From contig OY970061.1 in assembly GCA_963705255.1 (NCBI GenBank), positions 2,160,778-2,192,777 of the forward strand: a stretch of 32,000 nt of DNA, in the 5' to 3' direction. Positions within the stretch are counted from its first letter, which is position 1; each line of letters starts with the position of its first letter. Positions 27,001 to 32,000 of this stretch are shown one piece after another. The position numbers were made by a program. Source of the stretch: an uncultured Methanoregulaceae archaeon (GTDB lineage Archaea > Halobacteriota > Methanomicrobia > Methanomicrobiales > Methanospirillaceae).

Positions 27001-30000
27001 AGGGGATACAATCGCGTTTGTGACGGCCAACATTTCGGGGACTGAATGGTCACGGCTCGACACTGATACATTCGAACGGCTCGGGTTCAATGAGATCCTG
27101 CTGTATAATGCCAGCGGCAGTCTCGTATCGGGACAGGGGTACGATCTCAACCGCCATACCTTGGTTCCCGTCCCGCCAGACTTACATTCACCGCCATCAG
27201 TGTATCCCCACCTGAAGTTCCAGAACGGGTCAAGTACCGGCATCATGGGGATTGCAGATTCTCCCGATGGCCCGATGATGATTGCGATCCGCCCGGTCTT
27301 TGCCGGCCGCGAAAACCAGCACGTGGCCGGATACGTCCTCATGGGTCGCTATATTGATACTACGGAGATCTCCCGTCTCTCCTCGCTGGCCCAGCTGCCG
27401 CTTGAAATGCACGGGTATAGTGATAGAGATCTCCCTCAGGATTTCATCACCATACTACCGATGTTTCCGGCATCCTCTATACCGTTCATCCAGCGGGTGG
27501 GAAAAGATGCCCTTACTATAGATGCGCCGATCATCGTTGAACCTATAAACAGCACTCAGCTCGGCGGATATTCACTCATACGCGATATATCAGGTAAACC
27601 GGTACTTATCATCAAAGTCGGTATCGACCGGGGGATCTATGATCAGGGAAAATCTACCACGTTGTATTTTGTGGTCCTGCTCATCATTGCGGGCCTTGTC
27701 TTTGGTCTTACCACGCTCCTTCTGCTGGAAAAAACCGTGTTGTCGAGGCTCGAGCGACTGAGCCAGGGAGTGAACGAAATTGGCAGAAAACGCGATTTCT
27801 CCGCCCGGGTGCACATAGCCGGTGAGGACGAGATCGGGGGGCTCGCGGGCCGGGTCAACGGGATGCTCGAAGATCTCGAACAGTCCCAGAACGTACTGCA
27901 CGATAAGCTTATCCAGAGCGAGGAAAATTATCGTCTTTTTTTTAATAGTGTCACCGACCCGATCTGTGTGTGCCGCATGAACCCAGACAACAGCCTTGGC
28001 AGGATTGTCGAAGTGAACGATGCCGCATGTGAAGTGCTGGGATACCAGCGTGCCGAGTTTCTGGAAATGCATCTTTCCGATCTGCTCCCTGGCGAAAAAT
28101 CCGGTGGTGTAGATCTCCCGACCAAGATCCTGCAGTCGTTCGGGCATGTCATCTACGCAGGAGCTGTATCCACAAAAACCGGAAAACGTATACCCGTTGA
28201 GGTCAATGCCCGGACATTTGACCAGTTCGGGCACCCTGCCATAGCGGTTATTGTCCGTGACATCAGCGAACGGGAAGAGATAGAGCATCTGAAGAAAGAA
28301 GCATTCCAGCAGATCGAGAAGAACCTGCAGGATTTTGCCGTCCTGAACGACCATATCCGCAACCCTCTCCAGGGCATCGTTGGCATCGCGGACATGATGG
28401 ATGGTGCACCTGCACAAAAGATCATCACCTATGCCACGATGATCGATGAGATCGTAAACAGGATTGATCGCGGATATATTGAATCAGAAAAGATTCATGA
28501 ATTTCTCAGAAAATACTACGGGATCGGGAAAAAATAATGCCTTCCCAATGCGATGGCTACTCCGTGCGAATGCCCCTTCCTTTCAATTCATCAGCCTTTT
28601 TCTGCGAGCACTTCTCGCACCGGAACTCCGGCTCAGGATCATGCGTCCTGTCGTAATCTCCCGATCTGACCAGCCGGTACCCCCGGGCAACCTTTCCGCA
28701 GTCAACACAGGTAATATTGTCCCTGACTTCCCAGTGTGTCAGCAGTGACTGCGATGTGAAGATGAACTGGTCCACCCAGAAAAAGATGAGGTCGCCGATC
28801 AGGTTTGCTACGATTGCGGCGACGAGCTGCCCCATGGATGCAAGAAGGATCCCAACCCCTGCCAGGATGGGAGTGCTTGCCTGCCACCTGAGCAGGTAGA
28901 GCCCATAGCGTTTATAATTGACCTGCATACCAGTTGATCATGCAATCATCATAATACATGTTGTGCTGAAGTGCCCCGGTTCATGCCAAAAGACCGATGC
29001 TCAATACTATTATAGACGTCCTGATAAAACCTATACTGCATTTCCGGGAGACCGTATGTGGCGATATCGTAAACAACCGCTTGGCTGGGTGTTCGTGTCA
29101 CGGATGATGGGGATCATCAGTTTTTTAATTGCGGTAGTCCTTGCAAACATCCTTACATACTATGTGTCGAACAAGGTGTTCCTTTCCGGTGTTCTGTTTC
29201 TCAATGAGAACTTCTGGCTCCTCATCCTCATCGGCATCATCTTTTTTGTCAGCGATATATTCGGGGCATTTCCCTTTCCTCTCAATCTGCCGTTTCCGAT
29301 TATCAGGGCTATCGGGAGTGTCTTCTGTATCGCCTTTTTCCTGAAATTGTTCCAGTGGGTTGACGCGGTTGCGTCAACAACGCTTTACCCGATGTTCTGG
29401 TATATCTCATTCATCATTATCCCGCTGGTGTTTCTCATCGTACTGGCAGGTGGCTATTATGAGATCATGCGGCAGCTCTGGTTGCAGTCTGGGACCGGTA
29501 GAAGCACCGATGCTCAGGTTGTGCATGAAAACCGTGAAGTCGCTCCTCCAGACCAGCCGGTATCAGATGCGAAGTCATGGGAAGATATCGGGGTGGAGTT
29601 TCGCATGATGCTCTACGATCTCCTCCACCGGTTCCGCCAGGAAATAAAGAGAAAATAATGGCTCTGGAGAAATCCTATTTTATCGTGTGATTCGCTTATA
29701 TTCTTAAACGGTTACGAAGGTGACCCCCCCTCTCTCGAGTCGAAGAACTCTGACGAGTTCGATCGAAGACCTGCGGTCTTCTCCTGTCTCAAGTCTGATG
29801 ACTTTCGACATTCTCCAGCCTGCTTTTCCCTTCGGGAAGAGCAGTCTCCCCGGAGGGGGAGGCAACGCAAGGAGAGCACCCCCTTGAATCTCTGAGAGGT
29901 CTTCAGACCTCGAAGAAGAGAAGATTTACGAAGTAAATCTTCGACTCCCTATTTCTCGGCAGGATTTTCACTAACCTTATGAGGGACTATGTCTATATGG

Positions 30001-32000
30001 GGGTCGCCCAAGTAGCGGGGACAGCCAATGGCTGTGGAGAAAATTTTCATGGGAAAATCTTGGACTTCGGAGAGTCGAAGAACCCGTTGGTTCTTCTCCA
30101 GCCTGTTCTGACCTTCGGGAAGAGCAGTCTCCGGGAAATTACCAGTCGGGGTTTTCTTCACGGAACTTTCTCTCTCTCGTTTCAAGCTCTTCAGCACTCA
30201 GGGAGGCAGGCATGCAGATGCACCGGTGTTCAATAAACACCCCTGCCTTGAAAACGCCCTGTTGTTCACCGGCCTGGCATGCTCCATAGGTTTCAGCATC
30301 CCAGTTGTGGTAGACCTGCGGAAGACCTTCGCTGGCAGCACATTCCCTTGCCTCTTTCCATGACCCTGCCATGTCTGCATATTTGCAGAGCGCCACCATG
30401 ATGTTTTCGATGAGGGTACCTGGATATATGAAAACCACAGGCAAATCTCTAAAAAAAGAAAAATGATGAAATTAGAACCGGGGTTTCCGGTGCTTGGGCA
30501 GGCAGTCCCTGCAGTAGACCGGCCGTCCTTCAGTTGGCTTGAAGGGGACTTCGCACTCTTTGCCACAGTCTGAACAGACTGTCTTTGTCATTTCTCTGGG
30601 ACCGAAATTTCTCGGGCCACCAAAACTCTTTCTTTCCATTGTATTACTCATGCAGTTGTGATCTGCGTATATACATCTGACCATTCAGTATAAATACATC
30701 TGCATTATCTCATCTTTTTTTATTCAAACAGTTATATAACGTCTTTTACGGTATGATCTCGCATCCGTTGAATTTCTCATGCTCGAAATCCTTCAGGGTG
30801 ATAATATCCCTGCTGATGAGTGCTTGAACCCGCGGGAGTTCTGCCTGGAGCGAATCGTGAAGGTTATCGACGGCAGCACAGACCAACCGCCTCTCAGCCT
30901 CCCCCCATGGCCGGGTGATATTGGAGTACAGGCACCTGCCGCCGCAGAAGTCGCGGATTCTGCAGTCCGTGCACTCCCCGCTGACGAGAATGCGGGCAAG
31001 CTCCAGCGGATGCGAACAGGAGATATGCCCGACATAATACTGGGACATCCCGATCATGACCGGGCATGGGCCGATGCTTCCATCGGTCATGATACTGTAG
31101 TTGGCATACCCGGACCCGCACCTGAGCAGGCTGGTCTTTCCAAGAAGCAGGTCTTCCAGGGGATCCAGGAACGGGTACCAACGCAGAACTTCACCTGAGT
31201 TCTCCATATGATCTACCCAGGAACAGACCAGCGTACGTATCCCGGGATTATAGCTCCCGTCCGCCCACTCTTGAAACTGGCGCAGGGAAAAATCCCCGGC
31301 AAAATTGGCATCGATCTGCCAGTGGATGGAAGAGAACGAATAATCGGGGTTGGATGCAAGATACCGGACCGCATCCACGATATCGGTCGTTTCCGTGACG
31401 GTCATCCGGGCAATCAGTTCACCTGCATAGCCGTTCGCACGGATCTTCCGGATATTCCTCATGACCCGGTCATACACGCCCATTCCTCGGTTCGCATCGG
31501 TGAGCTCTTTTCTCCCGTCAAGGGAGACGAGAATTGTGGTGAACCTGTTCAGTATTTCCGCTGGGAGCCGGTCCAGCAGAAGACCGTTGGTCTGCACCAT
31601 GAACCGCTGCACGGGGGACTCCCGCACAATCCGTTCGATAAGGTCAGCCCGTAACAGGGGTTCACCCCCATAGAACGTAAGCGTCGCCGCAGGATCTTTT
31701 TTTAAGAATTCATAAAGATGATTCAGGTCGAACTCCAGTTCCAGGGGAAGACCCTCGTCGATGGTCAGGTCACGCCCGCCCCCGCTCTCCTCCAGATCCT
31801 CAAAGGCCTTGGCCCGGCAGTACCTGCAGCAGAGGTTGCAGTGATCCGTGAGGATGAGATGGAAGTACATGAAAATGCGTGTACTACTGGCGCCTGCCAG
31901 ACGATAAATGGGGCACTTGCAGGGGGATGAATCGTGCTCCTCTCATTAATAAGTATGGCCCTCATGATTTATGAGGATCCCCGGATGGCGCCATCTGATC

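Follow-up and report, generated by a model that had tools for sequence, protein, structure and literature searches.

A block of hairpin-rich repeats, here called block B, fills the gap between two convergent genes in a stretch of 32,000 nucleotides from an uncultured Methanoregulaceae archaeon (GenBank assembly GCA_963705255.1, contig OY970061.1, positions 2,160,778 to 2,192,777; hereafter the window). Comparison with related strains and with copies elsewhere indicates that block B is probably a recently acquired mosaic insertion, assembled from the short palindromic modules of a repeat family that is specific to Methanoregula and its relatives and analogous to repetitive extragenic palindromic (REP) sequences and bacterial interspersed mosaic elements (BIMEs). 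A first-pass annotation of the window had interpreted the region as a possible structured RNA of ~220 nt with a long-range closing stem. This interpretation is not borne out, since the stem is poorly kept among copies, both strands fold alike and the block is missing in strains that are 97.9% identical.

Results

The comparison of related strains, which the first-pass annotation had proposed, proved decisive. Syntenic loci were recovered via homologues of the gene upstream of block B; its synteny is kept in L133–L141 (locus numbers of our collection), with the common gene order chorismate-binding enzyme, CHASE4/HAMP/PAS sensor, 200-aa gene, 77-aa gene, treble-clef zinc-finger gene and radical SAM gene. 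Block B is present in L138 (99.9% identical to the window), L141 (99.8%, partial) and L135 (98.3%). In L139 and L140, whose flanks are 97.9% identical and whose 200-aa protein is the same, 23 nt (CTTCTTTAAAAAAATGGAAGAAC) stand in its place; in L133 and L134 (flanks 86.7–89.3%) these are 15 nt, and in L136 and L137 (70–73%) the stop codons lie 33–36 nt apart. As the outgroups lack the block, its absence is ancestral, and positions 29665–30131 (467 nt), which comprise the entire block B as delimited by filled and empty alleles, represent a recent gain. Thereby a short (~20-nt) A-rich spacer was replaced within ~2% sequence divergence. The block occurs in four independent assemblies and is therefore not an assembly artefact.

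At the polymorphic junction, comparison of filled and empty alleles at 97.9% identity revealed neither a target-site duplication nor terminal inverted repeats. No inverted repeat is formed by the two ends of the block (TGGAGAAATCC... and ...GAGCAGTCTC), and the sole long-range inverted repeat is internal, 10 bp long and part of module flanks. Between the window and L135, 8 differences were counted over the 467 nt of the block (1.7%) versus 33 over 1500 nt of the left flank (2.2%), and the two stem substitutions (29856 and 29927) each break a pair, neither being compensated. These differences are consistent with neutral drift since the strains separated. The CHASE4/HAMP/PAS sensor gene is intact in the window (583 aa) and broken into two to four called genes on L133, L134 and L135 (ENA contigs), which suggests frameshift errors in these three assemblies and calls for caution with their single-base indels.

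The commonest unit of the repeat family, the A-module (24–29 nt), reads RGTC-GAAGAnnn-loop-nnnTCTTC-TCC. It consists of an unpaired RGTC tag (AGTC or GGTC), a constant stem base GAAGA/TCTTC, 2–5 variable inner base pairs, a loop of 3–4 nt (mostly TGAT, TTC or TGAC) and a TCC tail; tag and tail were both carried by 12 of 16 plus-oriented modules in loci that had not been selected by the tag. Altogether 37 stem variants were seen. Pairing was assessed for TCGAAGA-N12-TCTTC, a pattern that does not presuppose it, and in 47 of 54 instances all four variable positions were Watson-Crick paired, whereas ~0.4% is expected by chance. With all spacings pooled, 433 of 480 cells were Watson-Crick, with 5 G:T versus 10 A:C mismatches, and the hairpin is thus constrained as a strict palindrome without a sign of RNA-type wobble. 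An excess of G:U over A:C was also tried as a test for RNA-level selection; the mismatches in the A-modules were too few and showed no bias. A-modules alternate with other hairpin types (e.g. GGGTC-TGAT-GACCC), nest inside one another and occur in both orientations within single arrays, as in the window at 29763 (plus), 29944 (minus) and 30075 (plus) and likewise in L073, L076 and L069.

For the dispersal of the family one genome per prokaryotic species was scanned with the pattern AGTCGAAGAA-N6-14-TTCTTCTCC, which yielded at least 102 DNA stretches; our own calculation gives ~40 chance matches for a collection of this size. Among the matches listed, about half lie in metagenome-assembled genomes (MAGs) of Methanoregula, Methanoregulaceae or Methanomicrobiales, the Methanoregula-type MAGs often hold several stretches per genome, and most other bacterial matches are non-hairpin and inside genes. 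In the window the A-module pattern is found three times against zero expected. Furthermore, the same modules recur at 5416–5640 (block A) and, in frame within an hgcB-like gene, at 17202–17315, so that the common family suspected for block A, block B and the hgcB copy is confirmed. Methanoregula-type loci of ~0.5 Mb, which were chosen for containing a module, hold 157 modules, mostly intergenic. The 85 intergenic ones divide into 28 in convergent, 37 in tandem and 20 in divergent gaps, and those in tandem gaps lie on the gene strand in 20 cases and on the opposite strand in 17. Clustering of perfect hairpins was too noisy for a census, giving similar densities in Methanoregula and control loci, and motif-anchored counts were used instead; 11 IMG/VR matches to the A-module pattern are non-hairpin chance matches in coding sequence and provide no viral link; and a CRISPR array is rejected given that the modules differ in sequence, orientation and spacing, the sole tandem array being 2 × 57 nt at 17202–17315.

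Beyond the single modules, a composite of ~360 nt (29660–30021, plus strand) recurs as a unit. Copies of 72–95% identity were found at five places in the Methanoregula MAG SPRUCE 366 (L041, L048, L086 and twice in L087) and in 18 further stretches on metagenome contigs from peat and sediment, of which three belong to one 680-kb contig. The genes beside these copies are unrelated, save for a few orthologous pairs. The left part of the composite consists of GGCTCTGnAGAAATCC, a T/A-rich box and TTATGAGGGTGAC-CCCCTCTCTC; the nearly invariant 3′ half (...AAGGGGAGCATCCCCTTGAATCTCTGAGAGGTCTTCAGACCTCGAAGAGGAGAAG-hairpin-CTTCGACCCC; ~29868–29947) is 85–95% conserved among copies and is followed by the tail TTTTCATCAACCTTCTGAGGGACTATC..ATATGGGGGATGCCCGAGCGGCGGGG. 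In a second subfamily the left part is another, T-rich one, with no box at the same position. In between, the modules vary: the unit formed by an A- and a D-module (A+D unit) is uninterrupted in 7 of 15 aligned copies and absent altogether in 4, the window, L135, L086 and one of the L087 copies have one to three extra units of 48–51 nt that interrupt the A stem within its 3′ half, and nine aligned copies have an extra hairpin pair of ~55 nt. At one orthologous intergenic site of L087 and L110 (~1935–2282), with flanks ~87% identical, the composite stands in opposite orientations. In L087 the two copies (~2700–3200 and ~6460–6800) are direct and bracket a 3.1-kb segment of two genes, one of which encodes a PEGA-domain protein.

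In 29727–30137 (411 nt) we found 8 perfect hairpins (stem of at least 6 bp, loop of 3–5 nt), where at least 6 had been noticed before; 2000 shuffles gave 0.27 ± 0.52 and never more than 3, and 411 nt of the window contain 0.62 on average. The segment 29727–29968 folds with −98.8 kcal/mol (z = −3.8; none of 200 shuffles as good). Its minus strand folds equally well (−98.9 kcal/mol, z = −3.2), as results from a set of DNA palindromes. Among 17 composite copies the difference between plus and minus strand was +1.25 ± 6.7 kcal/mol, the plus strand being no better, and G:U pairs made up 53 of 1216 pairs on the plus strand versus 112 of 1298 on the minus strand. Without a folding bias towards the plus strand and with fewer G:U pairs on it, the copies lend no support to a plus-strand RNA.

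The long-range pairing, reported with 9 bp, exists and even extends to 10 bp between 29737–29746 (GAGTCGAAGA) and 29938–29947 (TCTTCGACTC). Its arms are the conserved 5′ flanks of the first A-module and of the last, reverse-oriented one. Our survey comprised 21 distinct composite copies, with L041 truncated by the end of its locus. A contiguous closing pairing of 10 bp was found in the window and the 98%-identical L135 only, and the pairing is not conserved in other copies, an outcome that the first-pass annotation had named among the grounds for refutation: 9 bp are left in 1 copy, 8 bp in 4 and 7 bp in 5, and 9 copies, L041 included, show 6 bp or fewer or no left arm. When the minimum-free-energy structure of the window was projected onto the alignment of 15 copies, 73% of the cells of the closing helix were paired; of the two outer pairs, one failed to form in 8 and the other in 6 of 10 sequences, the inner three were essentially invariant and without covariation, and the left arm was gapped in 4–5 of the 15 copies. 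In the last local hairpin (helix 10), by comparison, three pairs are changed on both sides (ATTTAC/GTAAAT versus GGGAGGC/GCCGACC). Consequently, conservation applies to the local hairpins and not to the helix around them, and the closing stem merely results from two A-modules that stand head to head 190 nt apart.

The modules of block B can be followed from left to right. The candidate TATA-like box gcttatattc lies at 29694–29703 (plus strand), one nucleotide off the position first given, within the conserved left part of the composite; similar T/A-rich boxes (TTATAT, TGATAT, TTATAC) occur in many copies at the same distance from GGGTGAC. It overlaps the left 'header' TATATTCTTAAACGGTTACGAAGGTGAC (29697–29724, plus strand), which was read from the sequence and the consensus of the copies; TGAGGGTGACCCCC was found in composite copies only. 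A-module 1 (GAGTCGAAGAACTC-TGAC-GAGTTC; 29737–29760, plus strand) provides the left arm of the long-range pairing and is interrupted in its 3′ half, the uninterrupted form in other copies reading ...GTTCTTCTCCAGCC. Nested in it is an A′+B unit of 50 nt (29761–29810, plus strand; hairpins 29765–29781 and 29791–29805), missing in those 7 of 15 aligned copies that have a contiguous A+D unit. The first D-module (TTCTCCAGCCTG..CCTTCGGGAAGAGCAGTCTCC; 29811–29849, plus strand) follows and is present in most composite copies. The hairpin GAGGTC-TTCA-GACCTC (29896–29911, plus strand; helix 9) is invariant in all of them, with 98.8% of cells paired and no covariation. The reverse A-module (29918–29947, minus strand; hairpin 29920–29942) contributes the right arm, and some copies carry the alternative inner stem GGGAGGC..GCCGACC at its place. 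Next comes a reverse copy (30016–30041, minus strand) of the block-A module TTCTCC-ACAGCC-loop-GGCTGT-CCCCG, 88% complementary to 5432–5457.

The second A+D unit (30072–30132, plus strand) comprises an A-module (30072–30099) and the second D-module (30094–30132) and matches the canonical uninterrupted unit of other copies, e.g. L117 with 93%. That it repeats two modules of the first unit, as noticed initially, holds true: the AGTCGAAGAAC hairpin recurs, 30072–30083 is identical to 29737–29748, and the 39-nt module TTCTCCAGCCTG...GCAGTCTCC recurs with 90% identity between 30094–30132 and 29811–29849. The header (~27 nt) recurs in diverged form as GATTTTCACTAACCTTATGAGGGAC at 29962–29986, directly after the hairpin core, so that a direct repeat of the header brackets this core in most composite copies. 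Moreover, the 36-nt 'empty' gap of L136 (4600–4645) contains AATGAGGGTGAC, of which 11–12 nt are identical to the header (TTATGAGGGTGAC; ~0.01 expected by chance). This match could be a relic, a target motif or a coincidence.

The gap between the convergent genes measures 480 nt from stop codon to stop codon (29659–30138), in agreement with the first description, and the edges of block B lie 6–7 nt from each stop codon. The upstream gene (29056–29658, plus strand) encodes a conserved hypothetical protein of 200 aa (P0001) without a Pfam family; nearly all of its 669 homologues have ~200 aa, and the named ones are from Methanoregula or Methanoregulaceae. The downstream gene (30139–30372, minus strand) encodes a conserved protein of 77 aa (MAGSWKEAREC...ENPDW), for which alignments were obtained with L133 and with the products of L136 and L137, likewise of 77 aa. 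The two overlapping open reading frames (ORFs) that had been described as composed of repeat sequence do exist. Both extend beyond the block at its right edge (30131) and share sequence with the downstream gene in antisense or another frame. As they straddle the insertion boundary, an empty allele cannot contain them. Pfam gave no match for either ORF, and gene calling on the 99.9%-identical contig L138 placed no gene within the block. A scan for tRNA and tmRNA found none, and no Rfam match was obtained for the whole window at gathering thresholds or for 29600–30250 at E ≤ 1.

Further observations were made on the family outside block B. The hgcB-like gene for a 2×[4Fe-4S] ferredoxin (ORF 16899–17327, minus strand) carries at its 5′ end two tandem 57-nt A+B units in frame (17202–17315), so that a 19-aa segment appears twice in the protein (..SGKVPQNPGEMNKPSGFSD SGKVSQNLDGEKNPAGFFD S..). 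At the same place a single unit is present in another Methanoregula MAG (L061, ~2960–3030), hence the repeat copy number varies inside coding sequence as well. The adjoining hgcA-like gene (~17327–18300, minus strand) contains a 1-nt frameshift in a G/C run at ~17944 (KIIVPQLG / APGISWPEV), where the homologue in L061 is intact; it is either a pseudogene or affected by a homopolymer assembly error. Block A is located in a non-coding stretch of 1.5 kb within 4536–6105, of which 4540–5230 is strongly AT-rich and 5300–5325 resembles the 3′ half of a tRNA (GCGGGCATAGGGATTCGAACCC) without an ARAGORN tRNA call; this stretch may be the scar of an integrated element. Overlapping ORFs also contain a tandem duplication of 161 nt (19440–19600 and 19629–19789; spacing 189 nt, 88% identity), which has no relation to the hairpin family.

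In MAGs of the candidate phyla radiation (CPR)/Parcubacteria, i.e. Nealsonbacteria, Paceibacter, Saccharibacteria-labelled genomes and one unclassified bin, we observed a multi-copy hairpin whose core and flanks are the same as those of the A-module (AGTC-GAAGAA..TTCTTC-TCC) and which is embedded in hairpin arrays of its own (..ACCCTTCGC..). Among the matches listed, the hairpin form was found in 16 of 16 CPR loci (L002, L010, L024, L026, L031, L032, L037, L044, L046, L049, L051, L079, L080, L083, L093 and L095) versus 2 of 37 other bacterial matches. The resemblance could be due to convergence or to cross-domain exchange.

Discussion

A non-autonomous repeat family acting at the DNA level fits the evidence best. 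A conserved RNA gene is hard to reconcile with strict palindromy, indifference to orientation, nesting and the copying of whole mosaics to unrelated sites, and equally with the inversion at an orthologous site, the gain at strain level and the tolerance of in-frame units in a gene. The family probably spreads as DNA. An enzyme of the HUH/Y1 type may recognise the hairpins when the DNA is single-stranded, as a transposase of this type does for REP and IS200/IS605 ends, or recombination or gene conversion between copies may be responsible. Larger module orders such as the ~360-nt composite are copied to unrelated genomic sites. The replacement of the spacer without duplication leans towards a recombinational or IS200-like route over cut-and-paste. 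At the present locus the element presumably has no indispensable function. The flanking genes would be transcribed into the block, and its hairpins probably just join both 3′ untranslated regions.

Several observations weigh against the mosaic-insertion reading. No gene flanked by inverted A-modules in the manner of a REPtron was found in ~0.6 Mb of loci, apart from one spurious antisense ORF, and a Pfam scan around blocks A and B and between the two copies of L087 gave no transposase or integrase. Genes for REP-associated tyrosine transposases (RAYTs; Y1/HUH) flanked by the repeats were not seen in the loci scanned, and RAYTs are single-copy. The lack of a target-site duplication and of long terminal inverted repeats, with 15–23 nt being replaced, means that the mechanism could be recombinational. 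The RGTC tag matches neither of the two tags that define REPs (GTAG or CGTC). Moreover, a conserved TATA-like box together with a run of five to six T after the right arm in several copies is not explained by purely selfish DNA. Finally, the genome scan is biased towards its search pattern, and the context counts rest on crude longest-ORF calls.

The promoter-like box is the starting point of the alternative that the composite is a small-RNA gene on a mobile element, in which a hairpin-rich RNA of ~220 nt would be transcribed from the TATA box of the element itself and run from ~29722 to the T-rich stretch after 29947, acting in trans or in cis. In many copies the box keeps a constant distance of ~20 nt from GGGTGAC-CCCCTCTCTC, T5–T6 runs stand directly after ..CTTCGACCCCG in L041, L104, L112 and L118, and the very stable predicted folding and the conserved 3′ half would suit such a gene. 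Nevertheless we consider it unlikely. In the window copy itself the T-rich runs at 29950–29968, which do exist as first reported, amount only to TTT and TTTT, i.e. the T-run has degenerated, and the second subfamily lacks a box at the same position. The strands are symmetric in folding and G:U use, internal modules are freely gained and lost, the closing stem is not conserved and its left module is missing in 4–5 of 15 aligned copies. The absence of the block from 97.9%-identical strains and of any Rfam family at E ≤ 1 speaks in the same direction, and recent copying accounts just as well for the high conservation among copies.

Two functional explanations at the level of the neighbouring transcripts or of a protein were also weighed. 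The block might be kept because it serves both convergent genes, its hairpins acting as a terminator or insulator in either direction or shielding the mRNA 3′ ends from exonucleases, as proposed for bacterial REPs. Archaeal termination uses oligo-T tracts rather than hairpins, and we regard such a role as very unlikely to be the reason for the block, in spite of its position 6–7 nt from both stop codons and of the share of intergenic modules in convergent gaps (28 of 85, i.e. 33%, where such gaps make up 23%). REPs, too, lie mostly downstream of genes and are thought to act as RNA elements (PMC3733652). Against this, the sister strains and all more distant relatives have a spacer of 15–36 nt at the site, modules in either orientation also occupy divergent gaps (20 of 85), and a comparison of the window with L135 gives no hint of purifying selection on the stems. 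Termination or 3′-end protection may be a side effect and is not needed, because the sister strains do without the block. Practically no weight remains for the idea that the repeats are protein-coding palindromic repeats like Rickettsia palindromic elements (RPEs) or palindromic amphipathic repeat coding elements (PARCELs), with block B encoding a small repeat protein. In favour of it, the 57-nt unit is a multiple of three and, read in frame, gives the hgcB-like ferredoxin a 19-aa repeat at its N-terminal end; the indels between copies (48, 51 and 57 nt) are multiples of three as well, and ORFs of 107–112 aa span the array in L086 and L087. In the window that reading frame is broken, and a coding role for block B is excluded by stop codons in every frame, the longest ORFs having 53–85 aa; the missing Pfam match, the missing gene call on L138 and the presence of both module orientations within one array agree with this.

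For the mosaic insertion, REP, BIME and REPIN sequences are the closest comparison. The tagged REPs surveyed by Di Nocera et al. in 2013, of which the CGTC-tagged superfamily is especially similar, have an unpaired tetranucleotide tag, a stem of 8–9 bp, a loop of 4–5 nt and a 3-nt tail, form inverted dimers and clusters and include intragenic in-frame copies; a dedicated transposase has not been reported for the CGTC class, and among the eight phyla listed all named ones are bacterial (PMC3733652). The archaeal family likewise consists of short palindromes that have an unpaired tag of 4 nt with GTC at its end, a stem of 8–10 bp, a loop of 3–5 nt and an unpaired 3-nt tail, has many subfamilies that differ in stem and loop, forms inverted pairs and clusters able to adopt larger secondary structures, and is, in the loci counted, mostly intergenic with occasional in-frame copies at protein N-termini. 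The A-module is a palindromic unit within 20–40 bp that can form a stem-loop, and its orientation alternates in dimers and clusters. The differences are that the host is an archaeon, that tag and tail are RGTC and TCC instead of CGTC and CCA with the stem base GAAGA/TCTTC, that hairpins of several types (A, B, D and others) follow one another in set orders, and that whole ~360-nt mosaics with a non-palindromic header and tail are copied as units. Because the GTAG or CGTC tag is not present and no partner enzyme was found in the loci searched, the family is treated as analogous to REP/BIME and not as a member.

With miniature inverted-repeat transposable elements (MITEs) and palindrome-associated transposable elements (PATEs) block B shares the length of 300–500 nt, the lack of coding capacity, multiple copies, richness in hairpins and presence/absence differences between strains. 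Unlike MITEs it has neither terminal inverted repeats of 15–30 bp nor a target-site duplication, features which are reportedly also missing in the IS200/IS605-derived PATEs of Dyall-Smith et al. (2011). In contrast to MITEs and PATEs, 15–23 nt were replaced here instead of an insertion beside a conserved tetra- or pentanucleotide, the interior is a variable module array and not a segment with two defined ends, and a related tnpA or tnpB gene was not seen in any examined locus. RPEs and PARCELs (PMC2996958) resemble the family in that palindromic repeat DNA stands in frame in functional genes, here with two 57-nt units in the hgcB-like gene, whereas block B is non-coding and has no sequence or Pfam similarity to them; the PARCEL is a 25-residue amphipathic motif in membrane proteins (PMC2996958). 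As for structured RNAs, neither a match to an Rfam covariance model nor a covarying long-range helix nor strand-specific folding was found.

In the literature consulted, REP systems are called bacterial, with only subclass 1.1 of the IS200 type seen in Archaea, and our literature search found no described REP-like family of Methanoregula or Archaea, which is absence of evidence only. It is conceivable, though in our view doubtful, that Methanoregula and its relatives host a true archaeal counterpart of REP/BIME. In this case the RGTC-stem-loop-stem-TCC modules would be moved as single-stranded DNA by a putative, probably single-copy enzyme of the HUH/Y1 type, and entire promoter-bearing mosaics such as 29660–30021 would spread through the genome, sometimes into coding sequence as in hgcB. 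If so, the identical hairpin core in CPR/Parcubacteria, some of which live attached to methanogens, would point to an exchange of the system with archaeal neighbours.

A modular, strain-variable and abundant family of this kind would extend the REP/BIME-type class of repeats, which the literature consulted calls bacterial, to the Archaea and there to a widespread genus of peatland methanogens, and it would offer a handle on how repeats originate and spread without an obvious transposase. The mosaics create presence/absence differences of 0.1–0.5 kb between near-identical strains, give rise to spurious ORFs and can lengthen genuine proteins by repeat-encoded peptides, as at the N-terminus of the ferredoxin that partners the mercury-methylation enzyme. 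The family is therefore of relevance for genome annotation, for strain typing in metagenomes and for searches for archaeal small RNAs that are based on predicted folding energy.

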